Positions 9,741-41,561 of a DNA stretch of 44,087 bases are shown here, piece after piece (position 1 is the stretch's first letter; the number at the start of each line of letters is the position of its first letter). The position numbers and the translations under genes were made by a program. The notes below the pieces were generated by a model that worked only from the letters and a program-made list of their open reading frames with translations, did not search any database and was not told the origin of the DNA. This DNA comes from a virus, in IMG/VR virus record IMGVR_UViG_3300025009_000032; one strand, written 5' to 3'.

Positions 9741-12050
9741 ATGGACATTCTAAAAGTTGACGATGAAATTATTGAAGTAAAAAACAAGGCGACAGTTACG
9801 CTTTGTTGTAATAAGATTGGAGACTTAGAAAACCGTTACGGAACTTATTCAAACGAATTTGAACCAGTTGAAACGACAGAAAATCTTGCTAAATTAGATT
9901 TAATAAAATCCGTTCAAAACACATCTAAAAAGCCATATAAAAAGAATAAAGCAAGTTTATCTATTAATGGTACTGAGGTAATGCCTGAAGGTTTCGCAAA
10001 GATTGTAAATGGTAAGATTATTCTTTATAGTGGTATAATTGATTTGACTACACAATTAGAAGGGAAAAAGTTAAGAGATTTGGACTTATCGGCACTTGAC
10101 CATACGTGGTCATTAGCTAATATTGTTTCTTTAAACAGCACACAAGGGAATATCATTTATCCATTAATCGACTGGCATAGCGATAGTAATCCAACGAATA
10201 ATTATATAGACGGAGCATTGCATGGAATAGGTTCTATTGATGCACGTACATTATTTGCCTGTATATCTATTTTGTATATTATTCAACAAATAATTAAAGA
10301 TACAACTTATACAATTAGCGGAGATGTTTTAAGTGAAACAAAATTAACTAATCAGTATTTGCCTTTTTCGTTAGACAAATTAGAGTATGCAGAAGAGTTT
10401 ATTAAAAATAATGAGGCAACTATGGGTTTTATCAGTAGTGATATTGAATTGATTCCAGTTAGTTCATTTATAATAAGGTCTCCATTAGGATATAATCATG
10501 CTTTAAATGGTACATTTAATTTGGTTTGCGGAGGAAACATTGTATTTAGTGGCGTTGGTTACATATTATTGATTTCGTCTTCGGCAACTCCGATAACTGA
10601 CCCTGCATTTGTTGGTGGCACGTATAATGGAATATGGTATTATCCAGGCGGGACATATACTGGCGTTGGTGTTATAACAGGATATGGTATTTGTTTAACT
10701 ACTCAAAATTTGACTAATTATAATTATGAGTATGATGCCTATACTGTCTCAAGTCAATATTTTGTAAATTTTGATAATGGAATTACTTTTAATGTAGCAA
10801 AAATATTTAAAAATACAAACAATAATTTCAACATAAATACAGGAGAATATATATGTGCGTTCAAAGGCATATATACATTCGAGTTGTCTTTATATTGGAG
10901 TTTAAATATTGATATATTACCAATACTTTCATCTACGATTAGCGGTTCTGTTCAATTTGCAATATTAAAAAATGGTACAGCAATAGGAACATCGGCTGCA
11001 ATACCATTTTCACAAGCTGGTGTAGTTAATAGTTTTGGGACATCATATCAAACAACATTAATTACAACGACATCTAATTGTAATAAAAATGACCAAATAA
11101 CCGCAAGGGTAGTTAATATTCAAATTAACGGATTGCCAACAAATTCATTAAATTTTGTAAACGTATTATATGCAAATGCTTCATGGTTTGAAATAACAAT
11201 AGACCCTGCAATACAATGGGGTGGTGATATTTTCGCAAATCAGATTTTGCCTGACATGTCGCAACTGGATTTTTTAAAAACTGTACTACTTCAGCCTTTC
11301 GGACTTATTCCAAAAGTAGATAACGTAAACAAAGATATTGAATTAGTTTACTTTAAAAAGTATTATGATAATATACCAAAAGCTAAAGATTGGACTGATA
11401 AGATGGTTAAAGGTGATTATAAACCAATAACCGAAGAAAACAACACGGCGAAAAAGAATTGGTTTAAATATAAGCCAGATACTAACTTGCCACGATATAA
11501 TACAACTGGAATAGGTGATAGTTACTTTAATATAGACAATGAAAATTTACCAAAAGAAACAATTGTATTACAAAGCCCTTTTTCTGCCTCAATAGAAGTG
11601 AATAGATTTGGATTAGGTGCAAATGCTAAAAGAACGGTAAGGATTCCTAAATTGACATCTGGTGCAATGGTTAATAAAACGGAATTAAAAATAATTATGT
11701 TAGATTATAAGGTCGCACAAGGCACTATTCAATATTATGATGGCTCAAACCCTGCCTTAGCTTCGTATTATTCAACAATAATGCCTTTAGCTTATTTTGA
11801 CGATTCAACAATGCAAGATAATCTTAGTTTTGCAAATTTGATTAATCAAAACTACTATGAATATGCAAATTTTATATTCAAACAATATAAAAAGTTAAAA
11901 ATTCCTTTTTGGTTAAATGTGCGAGATATTAATAAGTTTGACTTTTTTATTCCTATATATTTAAAACAATTTGCAAGTAATTTTATAGTTGAAGAAATAA
12001 GCGAGTTTGAAGAAACATCACCAACAACCGTAACCTTAGTAAAAATGTAA
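9741..12050 (+). CDS. Tail fibre / receptor-binding-like protein with C1q/TNF-like central domain
   Basis: 769 aa. FNINTGEYICAFKGIYTFELSLYW...FAILKNGTAIGTS...NDQITARVVNI follows the C1q globular-domain pattern. Confidence 0.65.
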   Translation: MDILKVDDEIIEVKNKATVTLCCNKIGDLENRYGTYSNEFEPVETTENLAKLDLIKSVQNTSKKPYKKNKASLSINGTEVMPEGFAKIVNGKIILYSGIIDLTTQLEGKKLRDLDLSALDHTWSLANIVSLNSTQGNIIYPLIDWHSDSNPTNNYIDGALHGIGSIDARTLFACISILYIIQQIIKDTTYTISGDVLSETKLTNQYLPFSLDKLEYAEEFIKNNEATMGFISSDIELIPVSSFIIRSPLGYNHALNGTFNLVCGGNIVFSGVGYILLISSSATPITDPAFVGGTYNGIWYYPGGTYTGVGVITGYGICLTTQNLTNYNYEYDAYTVSSQYFVNFDNGITFNVAKIFKNTNNNFNINTGEYICAFKGIYTFELSLYWSLNIDILPILSSTISGSVQFAILKNGTAIGTSAAIPFSQAGVVNSFGTSYQTTLITTTSNCNKNDQITARVVNIQINGLPTNSLNFVNVLYANASWFEITIDPAIQWGGDIFANQILPDMSQLDFLKTVLLQPFGLIPKVDNVNKDIELVYFKKYYDNIPKAKDWTDKMVKGDYKPITEENNTAKKNWFKYKPDTNLPRYNTTGIGDSYFNIDNENLPKETIVLQSPFSASIEVNRFGLGANAKRTVRIPKLTSGAMVNKTELKIIMLDYKVAQGTIQYYDGSNPALASYYSTIMPLAYFDDSTMQDNLSFANLINQNYYEYANFIFKQYKKLKIPFWLNVRDINKFDFFIPIYLKQFASNFIVEEISEFEETSPTTVTLVKM

Positions 12051-12052
12051 TT

Positions 12053-14713
12053 ATGGCAACCGAAGCGAAATCAATACTTATAGAGATAAAAATTAACGTT
12101 CCTGAATTAGAAGCACAATCAAATAAGGTTGAAGAAATAATCAGGGGTATAAAAAAAGAGCAAGAACTGTTAAAGAAAACAACAGGAACGAATACTGCTG
12201 AATATAAGTTATTAGATGAGGAATTAAGAAGAAATCAACAAATATTAAGAGATAATGCTAAGGTTTTAGACGTAAATAAACAGCAATTAGACAGAAATAA
12301 TGCTTCATTAAAACAAGTTGAACAGGCGTTAAACGGAAGTAGGGCGGCTTATGCAAACCTAACAAAAGAGCAAAGGAATAATGCAGAAGTGGGAGGTAAG
12401 CTATTAACTCAAATAAAAGGCTTAACAAAAGAGCAACAACATTTAAGGGCTGAGATGGGACAGCATCAAGGTAATGTAGGTAATTATAAAACTGCATTAT
12501 CTAATTTAGGAGGTTCAATTGTTTCTTTAGCTGCTGGTTATTTATCATTACAGGGAGCTATGCAATTAGTTCGTTCAATATTTTCTGAAACAAGGGAAAT
12601 TGATGCATTAGATGCTTCATATAAACTAATGATTACCGATACAAACGAACTTGCAAATACAAACAGAGAATTAAAAAGAATTTCTGATGCGTATGGTATT
12701 TCTATAAATGAATTAAGAGGCTCATATATTAAATTTAATGCTGTTACACGTGGTACGGCATTAGAGGGGCAGAAAGGAATAGATATATTTGAAAAAGTAA
12801 GCAAAGTTTTATCATTAACAGGTAAATCGGCAGAGGAAAGCAACCGTGTATTTATGGCACTTACACAAATGATTGGTAAGGGAGCGGTAATGAGTGAGGA
12901 GTTAAAAATTCAATTAGGAGATACGTTACCTATTGCATTAAAAGCAATGGAACGTGCGACTGGATTAGTTGGGAATGAACTTTTTGAAATGATGAAAAAA
13001 GGGAAAATAATTAGTTCGGAAGTTTTACCTCAGTTTGCAATTGAACTTGAAAAAGCCATCGGTGCTGAAAGTGTAACCAAAGTTGAAACATTAAATAGTA
13101 ATATAAAAAGAAGTAAAACTGCTTGGACTGATTTTGTTGTAATATTACAAAGCTCTGGGTTTTTCTCTACGATTGTTGAAAGTTATACAAGTGCATTAGA
13201 AGGATTAACCTCAATTATTGACAAACTAACAGGAGGGTTAAAAAAAGCAGAAGCAGACAGAAATAAATTATTATCTGAATCATTAATTACATATAAGCAG
13301 TTAAATGAATTAGGTAAAAAAGATATGTTTGCGGAGCTTATTGAAAAAAGAAAATTTGCAGGTGAACAATTTAAGCAAATAACAGATAAGACTTCTAAGG
13401 AAGTTGCAAATGCAATAACTCAGGAATATTTATTATATAGTCAACAAATAAATGAAATAAGAGCATTAAATAAAGAAAAATCAAAAATAACAACAGAAAC
13501 AAATGAAGAAACAACTAATAAGATAGCCGAAGAAAATGCTAAAAAACTAAAAGCAGATAAAGACTTAGCATTAAAAAAGCTAAAAGAACAATATGAGTAT
13601 CAAAAATCACTTTATGAATTAGCAAATGAGAGTGAGATAGAATTAGAGAATTTAAGGTATGAGTATCAGAAAAAGGAGGATATATTAACAGATGCGAGTA
13701 ATACGCTTAAATTAACACATGAAACCGACCATTTAGTAAGAATGCAGCGAATAAACGAAAAGGCTGCAACTGAATTTGAAAAGTGGAAGGAAGCAAAGAA
13801 TAAAAAACAGATTGCTGATGCTGACAATGCTGCAAATGAAGCAGAAAAAGCCAAAGATGAATTTGAAAAATGGAAATTAGCTAAAAATAAAAAGCAAATT
13901 AGCGATGCAGATATAGCAGAAAAAGAAGCAGAAGAAAAAAAACAATTAATAGTAAATACATCTTATGAGATTGCAAAGGCAGGTGAAGAAATGCTTTTTG
14001 AAATACATAAAAACGGTATTCAAAGAACCTTAGATGCCGACCAGAAAGCACTCGAAGCTAAAAGAGAATTAGCATTAGCAGAACTTGAAGCACACGGAGC
14101 AACTCAGGAGGCTAAGGATAGATTAAACAAAGAATACGAAGCGAAAAGCAACAAATTAAGATATGATGCTGAAATTAAAGAATGGAATGCACAAAGATTA
14201 AAGATTGCTGTTGATGCTGCTTTAGCTATTGCTCAAATTTGGGCTAAACAATTATCTACAAAATTAGAAGCAGGTATTCCTTTCGCTATTGCTGAAAGTG
14301 CTATTGTTGCAGCACAAGCGGTGGCGGCAGAAGCGGTATTATCTAAAAACAAACCAGTTTTAGCACGTGGAGGATATGCAAAGACAGGAGCTATATTAAA
14401 TGGTAACTCTCATGCACAGGGAGGTATTGACGTTAATATGGAGGGAGGAGAAGCTGTAATAAATAAACGTTCAACTGCAATGTTTTTACCAACTTTATCA
14501 AAAATAAACCAAGCAGGAGGCGGAGTTCCATTTATGGAATCTGGCGGAATAATTCCGCAATATCAGCAGGGAGTTGTTTTGAACAATTATTTTGATATGC
14601 AAAATATGATTATGGAGGCTATAAAGAGTTTGCCCCCGCAAGTAGTTTTAGTTAAAGATATGAAAGAGGGTTTAATTAACAATCAAATTAAAGTTGATGG
14701 AGCAAGAGTTTAG
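12053..14713 (+). CDS. Tail tape measure protein (TP901-type core)
   Basis: 886 aa. LTQMIGKGAVMSEELKIQLGDTLPIALKAMERATG core, long coiled-coil, internal 87-bp tandem duplication, Gly-rich C-terminus. Confidence 0.85.
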   Translation: MATEAKSILIEIKINVPELEAQSNKVEEIIRGIKKEQELLKKTTGTNTAEYKLLDEELRRNQQILRDNAKVLDVNKQQLDRNNASLKQVEQALNGSRAAYANLTKEQRNNAEVGGKLLTQIKGLTKEQQHLRAEMGQHQGNVGNYKTALSNLGGSIVSLAAGYLSLQGAMQLVRSIFSETREIDALDASYKLMITDTNELANTNRELKRISDAYGISINELRGSYIKFNAVTRGTALEGQKGIDIFEKVSKVLSLTGKSAEESNRVFMALTQMIGKGAVMSEELKIQLGDTLPIALKAMERATGLVGNELFEMMKKGKIISSEVLPQFAIELEKAIGAESVTKVETLNSNIKRSKTAWTDFVVILQSSGFFSTIVESYTSALEGLTSIIDKLTGGLKKAEADRNKLLSESLITYKQLNELGKKDMFAELIEKRKFAGEQFKQITDKTSKEVANAITQEYLLYSQQINEIRALNKEKSKITTETNEETTNKIAEENAKKLKADKDLALKKLKEQYEYQKSLYELANESEIELENLRYEYQKKEDILTDASNTLKLTHETDHLVRMQRINEKAATEFEKWKEAKNKKQIADADNAANEAEKAKDEFEKWKLAKNKKQISDADIAEKEAEEKKQLIVNTSYEIAKAGEEMLFEIHKNGIQRTLDADQKALEAKRELALAELEAHGATQEAKDRLNKEYEAKSNKLRYDAEIKEWNAQRLKIAVDAALAIAQIWAKQLSTKLEAGIPFAIAESAIVAAQAVAAEAVLSKNKPVLARGGYAKTGAILNGNSHAQGGIDVNMEGGEAVINKRSTAMFLPTLSKINQAGGGVPFMESGGIIPQYQQGVVLNNYFDMQNMIMEAIKSLPPQVVLVKDMKEGLINNQIKVDGARV

Positions 14714-14984
14714 TTATGAAATGCCTGTTTATGACTTTTTGAAAGTCCTTAATATTGATAAATACATTAAGTATATGAATAGGAAAGGAATTAATCCTAA
14801 CACTATTTATAAAGATAGAGATATTTATGATTGTTTCTTAAAAAATAAGGAACGTTGTTTAAAAGCAAGAATTAAAGACGTGATAACACAAGCCGAATCT
14901 GATACAGTTGAAGATTTTAGGATTTTAGGATATAAATATAGTGTTAAAATGGTAAGGAGAATAAGAGTTAAATTTGCAAAATGA
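14697..14984 (+). CDS. Hypothetical protein
   Basis: The track ORF starts at TTG 14694; the first ATG is at 14697. Overlaps the TMP stop. Confidence 0.5.
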   Translation: MEQEFSYEMPVYDFLKVLNIDKYIKYMNRKGINPNTIYKDRDIYDCFLKNKERCLKARIKDVITQAESDTVEDFRILGYKYSVKMVRRIRVKFAK

Positions 14985-15691
14985 TATATCAGATATTTTA
15001 TAATAATGAATCAAAAAGCAAGCTATTCAAAGAGCTAAAGCCTTATGATAATACTGGCAAATGTAGTAAATATTTTGAAACAGATGTAATATTAGATATA
15101 TGGCAAAATAATAAATCAGAGTGGGAAAATAGTAAGTATGTAGGTGCATTGAGTTGGAGATTTCAGCAAAAAACATATTTAAGTTATAATAAACTAAAAC
15201 AAGGCATAGACAAATGTAATACACCTGTGGTTTATTTAACAAGCAGTAATAGCTTAGGTTATGGCAAAGGATTATCAGACCATTCATTTAATCAATGCAG
15301 AACAATAGCTGCGGAGATTGACAGACTTAATATTTTGGAATTTAAAATATTTTCGCATGACATAGACAAACATTCAAATTTCAGTAATTATTGGTTGTTA
15401 ACACCTGTTTTATTTGATGAATATTGTAGATTTATAAATTATATTAAAACATTTATAGATACCACTTCTAATAAAACTATAAGAGAACAATTGCGTATTC
15501 CTGTAAAATATAGGGTCGAGAATAAGATAGAATATTTTTGTCATCCGTTTTTTATGGAGAGGCTATTTGCTGTTTGGGTTTGCAATAAAGGATATGAATA
15601 TAGATATATACTTCCTGCTATTCCTGCAAATTCAGTAAGTAGGATAACTAATTTTTACAAATATAATAAAGATAATATTATTTTAGTATGA
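14981..15691 (+). CDS. Polysaccharide-locus-type protein (DUF4422-like putative glycosyltransferase)
   Basis: IYQIFYNNESK..PYDN..YVGALSWRFQQKT pattern, which I recall from uncharacterised proteins in EPS/LPS clusters. ATGA overlap with the upstream gene. Confidence 0.5.
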   Translation: MIYQIFYNNESKSKLFKELKPYDNTGKCSKYFETDVILDIWQNNKSEWENSKYVGALSWRFQQKTYLSYNKLKQGIDKCNTPVVYLTSSNSLGYGKGLSDHSFNQCRTIAAEIDRLNILEFKIFSHDIDKHSNFSNYWLLTPVLFDEYCRFINYIKTFIDTTSNKTIREQLRIPVKYRVENKIEYFCHPFFMERLFAVWVCNKGYEYRYILPAIPANSVSRITNFYKYNKDNIILV

Positions 15692-16245
15692 TTACAATTG
15701 TAACAAGGACAATGAAAGGTCGTGAAATACGACTTAAACAAATGATTGATTCCTTAAAAAGTCAAACATCAAATAATTACCAGCATTTAATTTTAAATGA
15801 CAATATAGGGTTAGGTATGTTGGAGGCTAATAAATCATTTTTCAATAATAAAGAAAAAGTAAAAGGCGACTATATTCACTTATTAGATGATGATGATTTT
15901 TATTGTTCAAGTGATTTTATAAAAGACATATCAGATATAGCATATTATAATGAGCCAGATGTTATTATTTTTAAAATGATTATAAAGATACCAAACGCAC
16001 CAATAGGATATGATTTTGTATTCCCAAAATGTTGGAATAAATCGCCTGAAAGAGCTAAAATAGGAGGCAGTTGTTTTGTTGTTTCAAATAGAATTTATCA
16101 AAAATATATACATCATTTTGGAGTTTATCCTATGGGTGATTTTAACTTTATTAATGAGGTTTGGAAAGAGCCGAATTTAAAAGTAATTTGGCAAGATAAA
16201 ATATATTGTGAAACCGGAATAGTAAGCAGAGGGAAAATATTATGA
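15688..16245 (+). CDS. Glycosyltransferase family 2 (GT-A)
   Basis: ITIVTRT...SLKSQTSNNYQHLILND N-terminus and a DxD motif (LLDDDD). Confidence 0.75.
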   Translation: MITIVTRTMKGREIRLKQMIDSLKSQTSNNYQHLILNDNIGLGMLEANKSFFNNKEKVKGDYIHLLDDDDFYCSSDFIKDISDIAYYNEPDVIIFKMIIKIPNAPIGYDFVFPKCWNKSPERAKIGGSCFVVSNRIYQKYIHHFGVYPMGDFNFINEVWKEPNLKVIWQDKIYCETGIVSRGKIL

Positions 16246-16967
16246 TAACACAAAGCAGATTTTCAGAAAGTGTTAAGTTTTTTAAATCAGAGTTTAATAA
16301 GCTATGGAATTTAAAAGAATTAACAGACAAAGCAAGTCCATGCGTATTTTTTGGAGTTTACAGCACAGCAGACGTTGAACTGATAAACAATTATAAAGGA
16401 TTTAAAGTAATATTCTTTTTAGGTGCAGACTTGCCAAATTTAAGTAGAATAGGTAAACGTAATACATTATTTTGTTCAGACAAACATAATATATTAGATA
16501 TTTATAAAAGTCAAAAATTGAATTATTATAACGGTATTATTCCAGTCAAAGATTATAATATATTTAAGCAATATCCAAAAGGTGAAAAGATTTATGTTTA
16601 TAGGAATAATACAAGTGAGGGAACTCATAAGAAATTTAAATTATGTTTATTAGAACCTGCAATTAAGTATTTTGGCAAAGATAAGTTTTTGTTTGGAATA
16701 CATGGAAATTCTATTGAAACAATGATAAATGACTATTATAAACAATCATTTGTTAATATTCAGCTTAATGAAATGGCGGGTTTTGCTTCAGCTATTGAAA
16801 TGGCTTGTATGGGTCGTAAGTCAATAAGTAATAATAAAGCTCCATTTTGCATTCCTTACACACCGACAAATATTATAGAATTGATAAAAAACGAAATGAC
16901 AAGTCCGTTAGATAATTCAGTAAAAAATTATATTAATTATTCAAATAAATGGTTAAATGAAAGCTAA
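16242..16967 (+). CDS. Hypothetical protein in glycan cluster (possibly GT-B-like)
   Basis: 241 aa. C-terminal GFASAIEMACMGRKSI resembles the GT1/GT4 acceptor-side helix. Weak evidence. Confidence 0.45.
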   Translation: MITQSRFSESVKFFKSEFNKLWNLKELTDKASPCVFFGVYSTADVELINNYKGFKVIFFLGADLPNLSRIGKRNTLFCSDKHNILDIYKSQKLNYYNGIIPVKDYNIFKQYPKGEKIYVYRNNTSEGTHKKFKLCLLEPAIKYFGKDKFLFGIHGNSIETMINDYYKQSFVNIQLNEMAGFASAIEMACMGRKSISNNKAPFCIPYTPTNIIELIKNEMTSPLDNSVKNYINYSNKWLNES

Positions 16968-17475
16968 AAGTCAAAGGGCAGATAAAGCTGCAAAAGATGG
17001 ATTAAATGATTTAATAAAATTATTACCTGATAATATTGTAGGAATAGAGTTAGGAAGTTATGCTGGAGAAAGTGCAGAAATATTCTGTCAGTCAGGGAAA
17101 TTCAAGGAATTGCATTGCTTTGATATATGGAACGGTGATTATCACGTAGGAACAGGCGAAGCGGAATTTGATTTTATAAAAAAGAAATATCCTGAGATAG
17201 TAAAATATAAAGAATATAGTAATAAAATAGTTGAGATATTTAAAAATAAACATATTGACTTTATCTATATTGATGCAATGCACACATACGAAGCCGTTAA
17301 GGAGGATATAAAAAACTCTTTAATAGTACTTAATAATAAAGGTATAATTGCAGGGCATGATTATATTGATACACCACGTAACCCTTTTGGCGGGGTGATA
17401 AAAGCCGTAAATGAAAATTTTAAACCAGATTATTTATTTCAAGATACCTCATGGATAAAGATATTACAGGAGTAG
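16957..17475 (+). CDS. Class I SAM-dependent methyltransferase (Methyltransf_24 / TylF-like)
   Basis: IVGIELGSYAGESAE SAM-binding loop, IDFIYIDAMHTYEAV, GIIAGHDY. Confidence 0.75.
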   Translation: MKAKSQRADKAAKDGLNDLIKLLPDNIVGIELGSYAGESAEIFCQSGKFKELHCFDIWNGDYHVGTGEAEFDFIKKKYPEIVKYKEYSNKIVEIFKNKHIDFIYIDAMHTYEAVKEDIKNSLIVLNNKGIIAGHDYIDTPRNPFGGVIKAVNENFKPDYLFQDTSWIKILQE

Positions 17476-18029
17476 TAGTTAATTATTGCACTTATGATTT
17501 ATTGGCAAATGCAATTAATTCAATAAGAAAATATTATCCTAATTTAAATATAGTGGTTATAGATAATACTCCAAAAGCAAAAGTAAAAAAAATAAAAGAT
17601 GTTAAAACATTAAATACTTTTGAAAATTTAGGACATGGAACCGGTTTAAATATAGGAATATCACTAATTAAATCAAATGAAATACTGATATTTGATAGTG
17701 ATATAATAATGAAAAAGCCATGTATAGAAGAAATGTATTATAACATAGGATGTAATTATGGGATAGGAAATATAATTACAGTAAACAAAAAAGGATTTAA
17801 TGATTATGTAGGAATAAAATACTTACATCCGCATTTTTGTATGATAAATAGAAGCATGTATTACAAGTACCATAGATTTATTCATCATGGGGCACCTTTT
17901 ATTAAAACTATGATAGAGTTAGATAATAAATATTTAGTTAATTTTGATACATCAAAATATATTGCTCACTTAGGAAGAGGCACTGTTAATTTAAAACCTA
18001 AAGAATTTATGGAAAATTGGGAAACATAA
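17451..18029 (+). CDS. Glycosyltransferase family 2 (GT-A)
   Basis: TGVVVNYCTYDLLANAINSIRKYYPNLNIVVIDN plus a DxD-like FDSDIIM. Confidence 0.7.
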   Translation: MDKDITGVVVNYCTYDLLANAINSIRKYYPNLNIVVIDNTPKAKVKKIKDVKTLNTFENLGHGTGLNIGISLIKSNEILIFDSDIIMKKPCIEEMYYNIGCNYGIGNIITVNKKGFNDYVGIKYLHPHFCMINRSMYYKYHRFIHHGAPFIKTMIELDNKYLVNFDTSKYIAHLGRGTVNLKPKEFMENWET

Positions 18030-18099: not shown

Positions 18100-19242
18100 A
18101 TGTACAATTGGCTCAAAATAGAAAATAAAGGCGAAAAGGCTGTAATTAATATTACAGGCGAAATTGGTACAAATAAAGATACTTCGGCAGAGCAATTATA
18201 CAACGAATTAACATCATTATTAAATAAAGATGTTAAAGAAATAACTGTAAATATTAAAGATTCAATAGGAGGCTCGGTTATTCATGGGGCTGCAATGTTT
18301 GGATTTCTTAAAAACTCAGGGGCAAAAATAACTACATTCGCAAAAGGGAAAATAGCAAGTGCTGCGACATATCCATTTATGGCTGGTTCAGTTAGAAATG
18401 TATATAAAACAAGTGAGTTTTTACCACATCAAAGTACTATATCGGTAAGTGGGAATTCTCAAACAATAGTTAAAAATGCAGAACAGGCAGCATTAACGAT
18501 GTCTGAATTAGATAATAATATAGCGTTACTTTATAAAGACAATTCAAATGTAGAATTAGAATCAATTAAAAACATAATGTTTGAAAATAACGGAAACGGT
18601 CGTTATATAAAAGCAGATGAACTTATAAAATTAGGAATAGCAACAAATTTAATTAATATAAATATTAACGAAATGGAAAATTCAGATAAAAAGACTGGAC
18701 TTTGGAAAAATACAGCTAAGTTTTTAGCTAAATTTTTAGGAATAAAATTAGAAGATGCTGAAATTGACAGCATGGAAAACATTGAAGAGTTAGAGAATAA
18801 ATTAACAGAAAATAATACTTCTTTAATGGATGTTATAAGTAAACTTCAAAATGAATTAAGCGAAAAGGAAACCGAAATAACAACTATTAAAAATAAAAGT
18901 ACTAAAACAATTGAAGTTAAATTAACTGAAATTACCGAAGTAGCAAACAAACTTAAAGAAGTAGAAAACAGATTAACTGCAAAAGATATTGAAATAACTG
19001 ATTTAACCAATAAGGTTAAAGAGATTGAAGATTTAAAAGTTAAAGAGGTATCAGAAATAACTAATAAGTTAACCAAAGAAACAGAACTAAAAAATAATTA
19101 TTTCGGTATTCTAAAAGCTCATAAATCAGACACTTTGCCTGATGTTATTCTTGAAAATAACTTTTTACAAGTGCAAAAAATAGAAAATAAATCTAAGCAA
19201 GAACTTGCAACAGATGAAGTTAAAAAAATGTATAATTCTTAA
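18100..19242 (+). CDS. Prohead protease (ClpP/S49 family) fused to coiled-coil scaffold-like C-terminus
   Basis: ITVNIKDSIGGSVIHGAAMFGFLKNSGAKITTFAKGKIASAATYPFMAG, then a repetitive E/K/T-rich coiled coil. Confidence 0.8.
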   Translation: MYNWLKIENKGEKAVINITGEIGTNKDTSAEQLYNELTSLLNKDVKEITVNIKDSIGGSVIHGAAMFGFLKNSGAKITTFAKGKIASAATYPFMAGSVRNVYKTSEFLPHQSTISVSGNSQTIVKNAEQAALTMSELDNNIALLYKDNSNVELESIKNIMFENNGNGRYIKADELIKLGIATNLINININEMENSDKKTGLWKNTAKFLAKFLGIKLEDAEIDSMENIEELENKLTENNTSLMDVISKLQNELSEKETEITTIKNKSTKTIEVKLTEITEVANKLKEVENRLTAKDIEITDLTNKVKEIEDLKVKEVSEITNKLTKETELKNNYFGILKAHKSDTLPDVILENNFLQVQKIENKSKQELATDEVKKMYNS

Positions 19243-19252
19243 AATATATAAA

Positions 19253-20479
19253 ATGAAAAATATTAATTTTAAAAAAATCGGATTCGTATTTCTGACCATA
19301 TTGTCAGTTTTATTCTTTTTTGTTGGAGGTGCGACTAATGTAAATCAAGCAACGGCATTGCCAAGCGGTGCATTAATTGCTAATGATTTTGATTTTACAA
19401 CAAATGTAACATCGGAATTATCAAAGTTGATTTATGATGTGATACCTAAGTATTCAATTTTAACTGACGTACATGATGTTATTGAAAATGTAGTAACTGA
19501 TGACAAAATTGGATTTGTTGGTGAACTTAATGAGTTAACAGTTGCTGACCCTGGATGTGATAATAGGGTTGCAACAACTCCGCAGCTTCCTAATTCCTAT
19601 AAAGAATGGAGCATGAAAAAAATGTTGTTTTTTCCAACTTACTGTTTAGATGACTTAGATAATACGTTATTTGCATATCTAAGAAATACAGGAATAAAAG
19701 AAGGTGATTTTACGCAAGGAAGAGCAACTGTTATTCAAAAGTGGTTAGTAGATTTTATCTCACGTGCGGTTGTAAAAGATAGACGTAGAATTGTTGAATT
19801 TGCTCAAACTGGCATTGCTAAAGTTGGTTACGGAGGTATATTAACACCTGATAGTGTTGATGCTACTGTTTTAGAATCAAATTATAATATGATGAACGGC
19901 ATGTGGTATAAGATAATTGCAAATTGCAATCAATATCCTGCAAGATATAACGAAATCACAAGAAACTCCGCATTAGATGGCTCTGGTAATCTTACTTATG
20001 AAAGTCAGAAATTCACAGATGCGGACGTAACTGGCTTGGTTATGTATAAGTTAATGATGCAAATGATAAAAGATGCTGATAGTAATTTATTATCTCAACC
20101 AGGTGTTGAGTTCAGAGTTTCAAGGACAGTGTATTATCAATTACTTTCAGAATTAAGTTTGAATGATAAATTACAGGCTTCTTGGGAAATTATGCAAAAT
20201 GGAACTAAAGTTTTAAAAGTTTGGGGAATTCCAGTTATAGAAGATGTATTTATTGACGATGTATTAAGGAGAGCATTTAATACAGGTGTTTATATTGATA
20301 AACCTCACCGCATAACATTACAAAGCAAATACAACGTTCCAGTTGCAACTGGAAAACTTTCTGATACTACTGATTTCTTAATTTGGTATGAAAAATTATT
20401 AGGAAAAGTTTGTATTCAGGGAGCTTACAAAATGGATACTTTGATATTGAAAGAACAATTTACACAAGCAGCTTTTTAA
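19253..20479 (+). CDS. Putative major capsid protein
   Basis: About 408 aa immediately after the protease-scaffold gene. The first ATG after the protease stop was used rather than track start 19205. The N-terminal hydrophobic segment is atypical. Confidence 0.5.
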   Translation: MKNINFKKIGFVFLTILSVLFFFVGGATNVNQATALPSGALIANDFDFTTNVTSELSKLIYDVIPKYSILTDVHDVIENVVTDDKIGFVGELNELTVADPGCDNRVATTPQLPNSYKEWSMKKMLFFPTYCLDDLDNTLFAYLRNTGIKEGDFTQGRATVIQKWLVDFISRAVVKDRRRIVEFAQTGIAKVGYGGILTPDSVDATVLESNYNMMNGMWYKIIANCNQYPARYNEITRNSALDGSGNLTYESQKFTDADVTGLVMYKLMMQMIKDADSNLLSQPGVEFRVSRTVYYQLLSELSLNDKLQASWEIMQNGTKVLKVWGIPVIEDVFIDDVLRRAFNTGVYIDKPHRITLQSKYNVPVATGKLSDTTDFLIWYEKLLGKVCIQGAYKMDTLILKEQFTQAAF

Positions 20480-21114: not shown

Positions 21115-21147
21115 AAGGCAATTAGAATTATTTAGTTGCCTTTTTTT
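21115..21147 (+). terminator. Rho-independent terminator
   Basis: AAGGCAA (21115-21121) pairs with TTGCCTT (21136-21142), followed by a T-run. Confidence 0.7.
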
Positions 21148-21153
21148 ATAAAA

Positions 21154-21891
21154 ATGAAAGAAGAAAGAATAAAATTAATTGAAATTGAATTAAGTAAATT
21201 TAGCGATAATACATTATATTTTAGCTTGAATGACAAACAATTATTAAGAAAAATATGTATTGAAATATTTGGAGAAAAAAAGACAGAGGCAATATATAAA
21301 AGAGGTTGTTCGAGTTGCGATATAAAAGCATATAGAGAAATAAATAATTACATTAAAAATAAAATTTATATGAATAATTTTAAATTAAAAACAGATAAAA
21401 AAGGCAATAGTGTACTAATAAACTACCCAGGCGCTGTTTATGATAATAATAATTTAACAGATGATATTGCAATAGCATGTTTGAGATATTCAAAAACAAA
21501 AGTTAGCATTTGCACGATTGATTCTTTTGAAAAATATCCAGCAAATTGGAAAGACTTAGTTGATGGAGTTGCAACTGAAATAAAAAAAGAACCAGAACAA
21601 ATAAAAATTGATTCCGAACTTTTAACAAAAAGAACAGAAGAAATTGAACCATTAAAAAAGTATCTTAAATTTAGTGTGCTTCCTTATGATGAATTACCAA
21701 AAGATAAATGGGATAATCTAATAAAATCATTAACTTTTGAAAGAGATAATGATGCTGAATATTTAAAAGCTAAAAAATTAGCTGAATTAGAAACCAAAAC
21801 TGTCAAAGAATTAAAAGAGCATCTATCAGTAGATGAATTGAAAATATATAAAAAGAAAACAGACATAATTGAATTTCTATTGAATAAATAA
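21154..21891 (+). CDS. Hypothetical protein
   Basis: Track start 21136 is a TTG inside the terminator stem. The first ATG is at 21154. Confidence 0.6.
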   Translation: MKEERIKLIEIELSKFSDNTLYFSLNDKQLLRKICIEIFGEKKTEAIYKRGCSSCDIKAYREINNYIKNKIYMNNFKLKTDKKGNSVLINYPGAVYDNNNLTDDIAIACLRYSKTKVSICTIDSFEKYPANWKDLVDGVATEIKKEPEQIKIDSELLTKRTEEIEPLKKYLKFSVLPYDELPKDKWDNLIKSLTFERDNDAEYLKAKKLAELETKTVKELKEHLSVDELKIYKKKTDIIEFLLNK

Positions 21892-30057: not shown

Positions 30058-30081
30058 AGTATTAAAATAAAAAGTAATACT
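30058..30081. terminator. Weak bidirectional hairpin between convergent genes
   Basis: AGTATTA (30058-30064) pairs with TAATACT (30075-30081). AT-only stem between the RusA and lysin 3' ends. Confidence 0.3.
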
Positions 30082-30535
30082 AATTATTAACTGGGAAGTG
30101 AATAAACATGTGTACGCTGCTTGTATGTCTATGTCTAAGCATTACTTCGCCGCCGTTAGAATCATTGCCTAACGATGTGTTTCCTTCAATTGTATTGAAG
30201 TAATTATCTACATTGAAATATTTAAAAATACCTACATGGTCATAATGTCCGTCTTTATTCCAGTCAAACACTACAATATCACCTTCTTTTGGCTCACTAA
30301 CTATTAGGTTATGTTTTTTTGCATAATCAATTAAAGTTTGCACACCTGCGAAACCATTAGTAAAACCAATTGGAGGGAGTTGTTTCCCAGCAAAGGCATA
30401 ACACCAACTAACAAATATACCACACCATGCAACGCCATCCCACCCGAACCACTCGCCATATTTAGTTTTATTACTATTTTTAGGACATTCTTTAGTTCCT
30501 ATCTCTTTTTCTGCTACTTCAATTATTTTATTCAT
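30080..30535 (-). CDS. CHAP-domain peptidoglycan hydrolase (endolysin)
   Basis: 151 aa. Catalytic Cys context GVAWCGIFVSWCY and His context GDIVVFDW..DGHYDHVGI. The only minus-strand gene. Confidence 0.85.
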   Translation of the reverse strand: MNKIIEVAEKEIGTKECPKNSNKTKYGEWFGWDGVAWCGIFVSWCYAFAGKQLPPIGFTNGFAGVQTLIDYAKKHNLIVSEPKEGDIVVFDWNKDGHYDHVGIFKYFNVDNYFNTIEGNTSLGNDSNGGEVMLRHRHTSSVHMFIHFPVNN

Positions 30536-32790: not shown

Positions 32791-33468
32791 ATGGAAAATA
32801 AAACTTTACTACCAAAATTAGCAAATTTATATGAAGACAATATTGAACTTGCGTATAAAAATGATCAGTTCAATGTTTTGATGAATCAAAACCCAAAGCC
32901 TGAATGGGTAAAAATAAATGAATATGCAAATAATTCAAAGTATATTCCAATAGGAATTATCGAAACATTATTGAGCAAAGTATTTAAATCATGGTATCCT
33001 GAAATAATAAGGGAAGGGGTGGCTTTTAATGGTGTGTATGTTGTAATAAGATTGCATTGTTTAGACTTAATGACAAATGAATGGAAACAATATGATGGGA
33101 TAGGAGCAGTGGAATTACAGGTTAAAAAAGGCTCAAGTCCTGCCGAACTTCAGAACTTAAATAAAGGTGCTATTATGATGGCTTTCCCTATGGCAAAAAG
33201 CTATGCAATTAAGGATGCAGCTGAACATATCGGAAAATTATTTGGACGTGATTTAAATAGAAAGGATACTATGTTGTTTGAAGCAGATAAATCAATTATC
33301 AATTCAATTGATGGTATAAATGATGCAAAAGAAAAAAATAGAATTATTGATTTTATAAACAAAGCTACTTCACCTGAGCAGTTACAGCAAATTTCAGAAG
33401 ATATACTTTTGAAATATAATTTAGTAGATTTAAAATGTGATAAATTAAGTGAATTAATAACAGAATAA
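32791..33468 (+). CDS. Rad52/Sak-like single-strand annealing protein
   Basis: YIPIGIIETLLSKVFKSWYPEII...VVIRLHCLD...YDGIGAVE and AKSYAIKDAAEHIGKLFGRDL parallel the Rad52 N-domain signature. Adjacent to the exonuclease gene. Confidence 0.65.
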   Translation: MENKTLLPKLANLYEDNIELAYKNDQFNVLMNQNPKPEWVKINEYANNSKYIPIGIIETLLSKVFKSWYPEIIREGVAFNGVYVVIRLHCLDLMTNEWKQYDGIGAVELQVKKGSSPAELQNLNKGAIMMAFPMAKSYAIKDAAEHIGKLFGRDLNRKDTMLFEADKSIINSIDGINDAKEKNRIIDFINKATSPEQLQQISEDILLKYNLVDLKCDKLSELITE

Positions 33469-40619: not shown

Positions 40620-41561
40620 ATGAACGAAACAGTTTTTAATAATTTTTTGAGGGATGGCAAAAACGGCTTGTCCGAAGATTTTAATGTATTATCATTATTT
40701 GATGGTATGAGTTGTGGCCAAATTGCACTTAATAACATAGGGTTGAAGCCTACAAGATATTACGCTGCCGAAATAAAGAAACACGCTATTCAATGCACAT
40801 TAGATAATTTTCCCGATACTATTCAGATTGGAGATGTAACCAAAGTAAATGGCCAAGATTTACCAAAAATAAACTTATTGATTGGTGGTAGCCCTTGCCA
40901 AGATTTTAGTAGAGCAAATAGTGTAAGAGATGGATTGAAAGGTATGAAATCAATGTTATTTTATGAATACATAAGATTACTTGAAGAAACAAAACCAGAT
41001 TACTATTTACTTGAAAATGTGATAATGGATGATTTAGGTTACAATACAATTACTGAAGTATTAGGAACCGAACCAGTAAGATTATGTGGTAGTAAAGTAA
41101 GTGGAGCTTTGAGAGATAGATTATTTTGGACTAATATCGGGCCTGAAAGTTTTGATTTATTTGGAAATAGAAAATGTGCAATACCACAACCGAGAGATAA
41201 AAAAATAATGCTGAATGATGTTTTAGAATACGGATATTCAGATAAGAAAAAGCACACTTGCTTAAATACAAGTTGTGGCCGAGATGCAAACCAAAGATAT
41301 ATGTTGCATAGATACACTACTACTGGAATGACTACCATTATTTACACGGATGAAACAATGGATGAAAGTAAAGGAGTAAGATATTGCACACAAACAGAAT
41401 TAGAAAAACTGCACAATATACCTTTAGGTTATACAAGAAACCTAAATAAAGCACAAGCTGGCAATTTGATTGGAGATGGATGGAGTGTTGGAATAGTTGA
41501 ACATATCTTTTCTTTTTTAAAAGGGGAGGAAAAAAAAATATTTAAAACTGAACCGAAATGA
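40620..41561 (+). CDS. dcm: DNA (cytosine-5)-methyltransferase
   Basis: Motif I LFDGMSCG, motif IV GGSPCQDFS, motif VI LLENV, C-terminal GNLIGDGWSV. No partner endonuclease, so it is an orphan enzyme. Confidence 0.9.
   Translation: MNETVFNNFLRDGKNGLSEDFNVLSLFDGMSCGQIALNNIGLKPTRYYAAEIKKHAIQCTLDNFPDTIQIGDVTKVNGQDLPKINLLIGGSPCQDFSRANSVRDGLKGMKSMLFYEYIRLLEETKPDYYLLENVIMDDLGYNTITEVLGTEPVRLCGSKVSGALRDRLFWTNIGPESFDLFGNRKCAIPQPRDKKIMLNDVLEYGYSDKKKHTCLNTSCGRDANQRYMLHRYTTTGMTTIIYTDETMDESKGVRYCTQTELEKLHNIPLGYTRNLNKAQAGNLIGDGWSVGIVEHIFSFLKGEEKKIFKTEPK

Follow-up and report, generated by a model that had tools for sequence, protein, structure and literature searches.

A mobile cassette of glycosyltransferase-type and methyltransferase genes in the virion gene block of a metagenomic siphovirus-type phage, with virion proteins as its possible target

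The IMG/VR virus record IMGVR_UViG_3300025009_000032 is a stretch of 44,087 nucleotides, here called the window, and amounts to approximately one essentially complete phage genome of the siphovirus type. Between its tape measure and prohead protease genes lie five plus-strand genes (14981-18029), named O1 to O5, which had originally been predicted to be translationally coupled and to encode enzymes of glycan synthesis; the coordinates proved to be exact, and every junction overlaps. Together they can be described with good confidence as encoding a soluble, cytoplasmic pathway of four glycosyltransferase-type proteins and one methyltransferase, which is mobile and accessory. The reading that we tentatively favour is that this pathway glycosylates virion proteins, with the major capsid protein as the most likely acceptor. 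The constant element is O3, a small protein that was present in every cassette examined and whose family was seen only on phage-like contigs of at most 112 kb.

O3 has no match in Pfam or PHROG, and the profile of its family also found nothing among the PDB sequences. An AlphaFold2 model built with 11 homologues (predicted local distance difference test score, pLDDT, 92.3) is confidently predicted to possess the GT-B glycosyltransferase fold with two Rossmann-like domains, in agreement with the earlier suggestion that this 241-residue protein might be GT-B-like. The top 39 matches in a Foldseek search of the PDB are all of the GT-B fold, the best having E=1.6e-4 and a template modelling (TM) score of 0.56 (query-normalised). 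The best matches are mostly glycosyltransferases (tll1591, SdgB, TarM, WsaF and PimA), and they also include the accessory proteins Asp1 and GtfA/B and one UDP-GlcNAc 2-epimerase; the alpha- and beta-glucosyltransferases of T4 are absent from the top 50. As read from alignment A1, O3 is without the first Glu of the GT4 EX7E motif and only the second (E186) is conserved. A profile search recovered 113 protein clusters of the O3 family, which are unannotated in Pfam save for one fusion protein, P0245, with three Pfam hits including a hexapeptide-repeat family. IMG/VR holds 14 O3 loci. No O3 was detected by tblastn in 50,697 deposited phage genomes, and none was found in species-representative genomes, for which a single pattern was scanned, so that sensitivity was limited.

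Two further proteins of the cassette had been assigned to the GT-A/GT2 enzymes with DxD motifs, which holds in full for O5 and in part for O2. O5 matches PF00535 with E=1.2e-11 (45.3 bits, cutoff 23.3) over positions 3-163 of the 168 in the profile, and D82-S-D84 constitutes its DxD motif, giving it both the family match and the motif of a GT2 enzyme. Orthologues with 39% identity are found in locus L003 and in the unrelated phage of L005/L006 (loci used for comparison carry L numbers, and individual proteins P numbers). O2 scored 19.5 bits against PF00535 (E=1e-3), which is under the same cutoff, so that Pfam does not place it in GT2. The profile of the O2 family (alignment A6), on the other hand, matches GT-A structures, namely the TagF N-terminal domain (1.2e-4), 3bcv (4e-4), 5tze (1e-3), SpsA and PglI, and residues D67-D70 of its LDDDD motif are invariant in all five aligned sequences; on this profile evidence we class O2 as a GT-A-like glycosyltransferase. 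Domains homologous to O2 also occur in proteins of 404 amino acids in L003, 461 amino acids in L006 and 728 amino acids in L024, and in P0014.

O4 matches the full profile (1-105) of PF13578 (Methyltransf_24) with E=2e-14 and 54.7 bits against a cutoff of 26.3, and it contains the S-adenosylmethionine (SAM) binding motif VGIELGSYAG; its orthologue in L003 is 61% identical. The membership of Methyltransf_24 that had been proposed is thereby upheld, whereas the TylF-like, sugar-modifying character proposed with it depends on another protein. O4 itself matches PF13578 only; it is the fused methyltransferase domain of the O1 homologue P0020 that also matches RMNT_CmcI, the rhamnosyl O-methyltransferase family (E=5e-7). 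O4 is presumed to be a sugar O-methyltransferase. The PHROG label "DNA methyltransferase" (phrog_2675) on O4 is an automatic name.

O1 yielded no matches in Pfam, PHROG or NCBIfam, and its proposed likeness to DUF4422 found no expression as a match to PF14393 at E<=0.1. A word-index homology search returned only O1 itself, and an exhaustive search of 1.84 billion representative proteins gave 137 homologues; among 60 of these a single PF14393 match was recorded (E=5.7e-3). The profile of the O1 family did match the DUF4422/GT111 domain of WbbM (PDB 6u4b), with E=1.5e-3 over 89 residues, and the motifs YxE...YxG, N-(Y/M)-(W/F) and ERLF follow in the same order in both. The AlphaFold2 model of O1 (pLDDT 92.5) gave nothing significant in a Foldseek search of the PDB, where 6u4b was not retrieved, and in BFVD it matched three viral proteins, all uncharacterised (best E 1e-12), one of them from the giant virus Hyperionvirus. 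Since its support is this remote profile match, "DUF4422-like" is a reasonable label, remotely supported. The DUF4422 domain of WbbM is a galactofuranosyltransferase with a fold of its own (PMC12269835), and O1 is presumed to be a glycosyltransferase. Escherichia coli WbbI, considered as a possible further DUF4422 protein, showed no similarity to the O1 family by hhalign and was discarded as a comparison. Single-sequence PDB searches with the five cassette proteins gave nothing significant. The structural comparisons suggested along with the original prediction have consequently come out unevenly, placing O3 among GT-B folds by its model and O2 among GT-A enzymes by its profile, and giving no significant PDB fold match for O1.

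In other loci several of these activities are joined in single proteins. P0014, on L013, is a fusion of O1 and O2, P0020 is a Methyltransf_24/RMNT_CmcI domain fused to O1, and L026 encodes a fusion of O3, Methyltransf_24 and a GNAT acetyltransferase. Because fusions join O1 to O2, the methyltransferase to O1 and O3 to the methyltransferase, the five genes would appear to serve one glycan pathway. The domains fused to O1 among the 60 homologues are Methyltransf_24 (nine) and RMNT_CmcI (five), and also GT2, RgpF, GT92 and GT1. When 130 genes neighbouring O3 homologues on IMG/VR contigs were scanned with Pfam, the census was dominated by sugar enzymes, from which we conclude that the O3 family belongs to phage sugar loci: GT2 was found 15 times, DegT aminotransferases 11 times and hexapeptide acyltransferases eight times, followed by GDP-mannose dehydratase, WbqC, epimerases, UDP-glucose dehydrogenase and Methyltransf_24 (three each) and Phage_capsid (two).

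The cassette is found at the same position, between the tape measure and protease genes, in L003, L013 and L108. In these three loci the tape measure gene is followed by an O0-like gene, a GT-A/O1 module, O3, a methyltransferase gene that may be present or absent, GT2 and the protease gene. O0, a small conserved gene ahead of the cassette in the window as well as in relatives, was left out of the original gene list. It is homologous to the genes of 79 and 78 amino acids that occupy its position in L003 and L013 (alignment A8, 16-33% identity; L003 against L013 by phmmer, E=2e-6), and genes of its family come after the tape measure gene in L036, L045 and L085; a Pfam scan of O0 gave nothing above noise. 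Between the window and the syntenic L003 the cassette proteins are 39-62% identical, against 22-34% for the structural proteins, and we have good confidence that the cassette has been retained under selection through deep divergence.

A core of O2, O3 and GT2, with 37-55% identity, recurs in a phage of the contractile-tail type which otherwise has no genes in common with the window (L005, L006, L109 and L111), where it is located between the GpA-type large terminase gene and the sheath and tail genes. A more distant set of O3 and GT2 lies directly ahead of the small and large terminase genes in L007 and L008, directly ahead of the portal, S78 protease and capsid genes in L014 and directly after the capsid gene in L024, and in L022 it adjoins a T4-type S77 prohead protease gene. 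Of about 12 independent contexts, six thus have an O3-containing cassette immediately next to head, tail or packaging genes. In L007 (2773-3150) and L008 (11491-11868) the O3-GT2-GT2 genes are followed, upstream of the terminase, by a gene for a 125-residue protein with a lipoprotein-type N-terminus (MENKLIIIALLFIIGCKKE).

A metagenome scan with the C-terminus of the tape measure protein recovered 80 related loci, 41 of which show both the end of the tape measure gene and the protease gene. The interval between the two has a median length of 878 bp, contains 0-3 small open reading frames (ORFs) and exceeds 2 kb in five of the 41; in the window it measures 3,386 bp. The cassette is syntenic in L003, L013 and L108, and most relatives have only a short slot. 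Because the slot is normally short and variable, the cassette is better regarded as accessory cargo in a hot spot than as a core component of the virion.

Other members of this lineage hold different glycan cargo. The slot of L036 (2317-5926) encodes a GT-A domain that shares 45% identity with the N-terminal half of the 404-residue protein of L003, and that of L085 (4424-8548) holds a GT2-like gene. In L074 (15851-17255) an O1-family gene with a methyltransferase gene, and in L046 (4492-5169) an O1-family gene, occupy a further slot that lies between the genes for capsid and portal. Since relatives hold differing cargo in these slots, the lineage seems repeatedly to gain and vary glycan enzymes within the virion gene block. 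When the remaining slot cargo of L036 and L085 was compared by hhalign with local profiles of O1, O2, O3, GT2 and the methyltransferase, nothing reached 50% probability, and the same was true of the genes adjacent to O1 in L046 and of a 251-residue ORF of the window (21136-21891). Read by eye, without confirmation by a tool, the L036 slot also holds a hexapeptide-repeat acyltransferase-like protein and two proteins with DxD-type motifs. L003 (12081-12602) and L036 (5309-5926) share a minus-strand gene (42% identity), which separates the glycan cargo from the protease gene and is absent in the window; its product shows the motif VLGLGESL...GVNDI...DY. A profile search of the PDB lent no support to the idea that this product is Maf- or GT42-like.

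The major capsid protein of the window differs from those of most relatives at its N-terminus. Residues 1-37 (19253-19363) form a hydrophobic, signal-peptide-like extension (MKNINFKKIGFVFLTILSVLFFFVGGATNV...) upstream of the conserved core, and the capsid protein of L003 has an extension of 58 residues (13866-14039). The highest 15-residue Kyte-Doolittle value is 2.73 for the window and 2.45 for L003, compared with a maximum of 1.56 in 35 relatives. The extension is present in both of the O3-cassette phages with a visible capsid gene and in none of these 35 relatives, whose capsid proteins start at the core and in whose recovered sequence no O3 homologue is detectable. A crude neighbour-joining tree of the capsid cores places L003 nearest to L036, which has neither O3 nor the extension, and the window branches outside both, from which it follows that O3 and the extension co-vary over at least two events. 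The extension may therefore be considered a candidate partner of the cassette.

The cassette and the genes surrounding it are listed in Table 1. The start and stop codons overlap as ATGA at the O0/O1, O1/O2 and O2/O3 junctions, the overlap being 11 nt for O3/O4 and 25 nt for O4/O5. O0 itself overlaps the stop codon of the tape measure gene as well as the start codon of O1, and a gap of 70 nt separates O5 from the prohead protease gene. No plus-strand terminator-like site was found in 14.7-18.1 kb, in a scan that is uninformative given how few such sites there are (4 against 2.7 expected). Promoter-like sites were no commoner than chance in a scan that did not cover the promoter types of Bacteroidota and is likewise uninformative. 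Co-transcription of the cassette with the structural genes is what we infer from the arrangement. The cassette has a guanine plus cytosine (GC) content of 26.9%, compared with 28.6% for the window, and its codon usage has a cosine similarity of 0.93-0.96 with the rest of the genome. None of the products of O0 to O5 contains a hydrophobic segment (19-residue Kyte-Doolittle maximum <=1.12), and all five cassette proteins are predicted to be soluble.

Table 1. Genes of the cassette and its flanks in the window
Feature	Position	Strand	Description
O0	14697-14984	+	95 aa; small conserved protein ahead of the cassette
O1	14981-15691	+	236 aa; unannotated family, remotely DUF4422/GT111-like, presumed glycosyltransferase
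O2	15688-16245	+	185 aa; GT-A-like glycosyltransferase, LDDDD motif
O3	16242-16967	+	241 aa; miniature GT-B-fold protein (predicted)
O4	16957-17475	+	172 aa; Methyltransf_24 SAM methyltransferase
O5	17451-18029	+	192 aa; GT2 glycosyltransferase
Tape measure (upstream flank)	12053-14713	+	PF20155 TMP_3, E=6e-29; phrog_18891, E=2e-49
Clp-type prohead protease, coiled-coil C-terminal half (downstream flank)	18100-19242	+	PF00574, E=1e-12; phrog_94, E=1e-22; phrog_2976, head maturation protease
Major capsid protein	19253-20479	+	24% identical to the XkdG-like capsid gene of Bacteroides phage BS-TP3

Pfam and PHROG scans were made of 42 ORFs of the window, comprising all those of at least 143 amino acids and a few shorter ones. 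They revealed no nucleotide-sugar enzyme, no flippase and no polymerase, in keeping with what had been stated originally, and likewise no initiating transferase and no integrase. Since the cassette encodes neither donor synthesis nor export, it would act in the cytoplasm, on nucleotide sugars of the host. In the mechanism that we propose, this late-expressed and horizontally mobile cassette would direct the synthesis of a short oligosaccharide bearing an O-methyl group. O3 would be the component that recognises the acceptor, and might either prime the glycan as a transferase or serve as an adaptor in the manner of GtfB or Asp1; elongation would fall to the GT-A (O2), GT2 (O5) and GT111-like (O1) enzymes, and methylation to O4. 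The acceptor would be a virion protein assembled in the same compartment and at the same time, for which the major capsid protein is the prime candidate. A virion target is favoured because the genes overlap late genes, no integrase was found and there is no membrane or export component; because O3 was seen only on phage-like contigs and is present in every cassette examined; and because of the recurrence beside head, tail and packaging genes, the co-occurrence with the capsid extension and the precedent of the mycobacteriophages.

Several observations weigh against this interpretation. In approximately half of its contexts, L110 among them, O3 lies in a large sugar island and no structural gene is visible, and our rough binomial estimate for the adjacency to structural genes is about P = 0.05, the independence of the contexts being arguable. 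The interval between the tape measure and protease genes is a variable slot, and such slots often hold genes unrelated to the virion. Location within the virion module, on which the original prediction had relied, is accordingly weakened as an argument by a slot with so short a median length; the six contexts of about 12 and the capsid extension lend new indirect support to a virion target, the capsid in particular. The correlation with the extension comes from two positive genomes, and L036, with a different glycan cargo in its slot, has no extension. In addition, the extension of the window contains a terminator-like hairpin (19292-19307) and, near 19355, an in-frame TTG that could be the real start, so that the start of the capsid gene is uncertain. 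With the first Glu of the EX7E motif missing, O3 may be non-catalytic. No match to the mycobacteriophage enzymes was found when O1, O3 and O5 were compared by tblastn with the 50,697 deposited phage genomes.

Remodelling of the host envelope glycans is a different outcome that the same enzymes might produce, if, on the cytoplasmic side of the membrane, they modified the undecaprenyl-linked host precursors from which O-antigen, capsule or the general O-glycan of Bacteroidota is made; the phage might benefit through receptor masking, superinfection exclusion or progeny that do not stick to debris. The nearest cellular relatives of O1, O2 and O5 are indeed enzymes of polysaccharide synthesis (WbbM GT111, the RgpF/RMNT_CmcI fusions, and the TagF, TarS, SpsA and PglI-type GT-A structures), the slot is moron-like, with alternative glycan cargos in L036 and L085 that recall serotype-type diversification, and published interpretations of cyanophage glycosyltransferase islands favour modification of the host surface (PMC12801897). 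We nevertheless consider this unlikely. Lysogenic conversion in particular is improbable because no integrase was detected, leaving no lysogenic stage in which conversion would pay; moreover, no terminator separates the genes from the late tail genes that they overlap, membrane proteins, flippases, initiating transferases and GtrA/B/C-type components are all missing, and the constant element, O3, is seen only on phage-like contigs. The target could also be another cytoplasmic molecule, that is a non-virion protein of phage or host or a small molecule, the cassette then serving for instance as anti-defence or host-takeover cargo. Its accessory and mobile nature would suit such a role, as would the O3 contexts without structural neighbours and the presence, among the structural analogues of O3, of protein O-glycosyltransferases and adaptors that act on non-structural substrates. 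The window offers no pointer to a specific acceptor of this kind, though, and it would have to be coincidence that the cassette lies repeatedly near genes for head, tail and packaging and that it correlates with the capsid extension, for which reasons we regard such a target as quite improbable.

Sugar hypermodification of DNA, in which a modified base would be decorated before packaging, seems to us very unlikely. Phage GT-A and GT-B enzymes are known to glycosylate 5-hydroxymethylcytosine (5hmC) or 5-hydroxycytosine (5hoC), in clusters which can adjoin structural or terminase genes (bioRxiv 10.1101/2023.12.21.572611; PMC13326640), the phage encodes a C5-cytosine DNA methyltransferase (40620-41561), and O4-like proteins bear the automatic PHROG label already mentioned. 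That methyltransferase gene, however, is 23 kb away from the cassette, the T4 glucosyltransferases are not among the leading fold matches of O3, and the neighbours of O3 homologues encode sugar-nucleotide rather than base-modification enzymes. Above all, the published clusters depend on an enzyme that creates the acceptor base, and no such enzyme was found: as had been noted for the hydroxymethyl-pyrimidine pathway, the scanned ORFs include no thymidylate-synthase homologue and no TET/JBP dioxygenase. Glycosylation of virion proteins therefore remains the interpretation to which we incline.

A broader proposal, which we put forward as possible and rather doubtful, would make O3 a new, phage-only family of mini GT-B proteins that forms, together with GT2-type partners, a portable module for virion glycosylation in unrelated aquatic tailed phages, those of Bacteroidota included. 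The module would act on the capsid by way of a dedicated hydrophobic extension, and relatives would swap the accessory enzymes (methyltransferase, acetyltransferase and GT111-like) at one hot spot. If this is true, virion glycosylation is widespread outside the actinobacteriophages. The cassette is a concrete and cheap test system for the question of whether virion glycosylation is a general phage strategy, and resolving it would show what the O3 and O1 families, and the large sugar islands found in aquatic phages, do. Should the target be host glycans or something else, the cassette would still represent a defined case in which glycan cargo diversifies at a fixed hot spot in phages.

The sequence of the window recurs on a contig of 44,170 bp and in groundwater metagenomes. 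A 9-kb megablast search against deposited phages gave zero matches, and IMG/VR single-protein scans with O5 and with the protease revealed no relatives. The large terminase has its best matches in phages of Croceibacter, Riemerella, Cellulophaga, Chryseobacterium and Flavobacterium, and the C-terminus of the tape measure protein matches phages of Cellulophaga and Elizabethkingia. Because these are phages of Flavobacteriia, the host is likely to belong to this class, and the earlier attribution to a Bacteroidota phage is plausible. In addition to both terminase subunits, the scans of the 42 ORFs identified a weak portal match, DUF6712, YopX, exonuclease, endonuclease VII, primase-helicase, the C5 DNA methyltransferase and a minus-strand CHAP lysin. 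The match of the C5 methyltransferase to PF00145 covers residues 21-134 only, approximately its N-terminal third. The CHAP/NlpC-P60 lysin gene (30080-30535) is the sole Pfam-annotated minus-strand gene found, and the GC skew shows a local dip at its position.

The order of the modules in 1513-25119 is unusual: the small and large terminase genes are followed by tail-like genes, the gene for a fibre-like protein and the tape measure gene, and only then by the prohead protease, capsid and portal genes. This tail-before-head order is conserved in a large, mostly marine metagenomic lineage (L028-L107), many contigs of which are labelled TARA. The fibre-like protein of 769 amino acids (9741-12050), encoded just upstream of the tape measure gene, has a short C1q match (PF00386, E=3.6e-5, residues 336-386), and its homologues sit before the tape measure gene in 43 related loci. 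A 225-residue protein of the early region (32791-33468) is 64% identical to the product of a gene located beside the YqaJ exonuclease gene in the O3-bearing phage L008 (1753-2295); common to the window and the otherwise unrelated L008, it is probably part of a shared recombination module.

To our knowledge, a few mycobacteriophages are so far the only phages whose particles have been shown to be glycosylated, and Freeman and co-workers, in their study of 2023, reportedly saw little evidence for such particles in other phages. The chlorovirus PBCV-1, a eukaryotic giant virus and as such unlike the phage of the window, has a protein, A064R, in which two glycosyltransferase domains are combined with a methyltransferase domain. 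The likeness to the cassette, as its action is proposed here, lies in cytoplasmic viral glycosyltransferases and a sugar O-methyltransferase that build a capsid glycan from host nucleotide sugars with no use of the host export machinery.

According to Freeman et al. (2023; Cell Host Microbe 31:1216), whose work is cited in PMC12363180 and PMC12619734, the capsid and tail tube subunits of mycobacteriophages are glycosylated by phage-encoded enzymes, so that the precedent invoked in the original prediction stands as a precedent, if not as homology of the enzymes. Che8 (gp110), Corndog (gp38) and Myrna resemble the window in their phage-encoded soluble glycosyltransferases, sometimes accompanied by a methyltransferase (PMC13313380). 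They differ in that their acceptors are capsid and tail tube subunits, the virion acceptor of the window cassette being a candidate, in that their hosts are Actinobacteria rather than, as is probable here, Flavobacteriia, and in that the cassette has the mini GT-B protein O3 and the GT111-like O1, both unmatched in the 50,697 phage genomes, mycobacteriophages included. The DNA-hypermodification clusters (Pyle et al.; Lee et al. 2026) also possess several GT-A and GT-B glycosyltransferases, sometimes near structural genes; unlike the cassette, they require either a thymidylate-synthase homologue or a 5-methylpyrimidine dioxygenase, and neither enzyme was detected in the window. Serotype conversion by gtrABC, which involves membrane components (the flippase GtrA, GtrB and GtrC) and a temperate lifestyle, differs from the present case, in which the O0 to O5 proteins are without hydrophobic segments and no integrase was detected.

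At the level of single proteins, O1 shares a remote profile match and motif order with the GT111 domain of Klebsiella WbbM (6u4b), and domains of its family likewise occur in multidomain polysaccharide enzymes; it differs in having no PF14393 match and in the failure of Foldseek to retrieve 6u4b. O3 finds its best fold matches among GT4-type GT-B enzymes and adaptors (SdgB, GtfA/GtfB, Asp1, TarM, WsaF and tll1591), and it retains the segment G-F-x4-E-x3-M-G-R, the counterpart of the nucleotide-binding EX7E region. Compared with these proteins it is about 100 residues shorter, lacks a Pfam GT1/GT4 match as well as the first Glu, and attains a TM score of only about 0.5-0.56. The O3 homologues in IMG/VR sit in sugar islands like those of cyanophages and large aquatic phages, in comparison with which the window cassette is minimal, with five enzymes and no donor synthesis in a 44-kb genome of the siphovirus type. 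Phage glycosyltransferase cassettes are already known as a kind; what is new here are the two unannotated families, one of them only on phage-like contigs, the portability of the cassette, its diversification at a hot spot and the link with the capsid extension.

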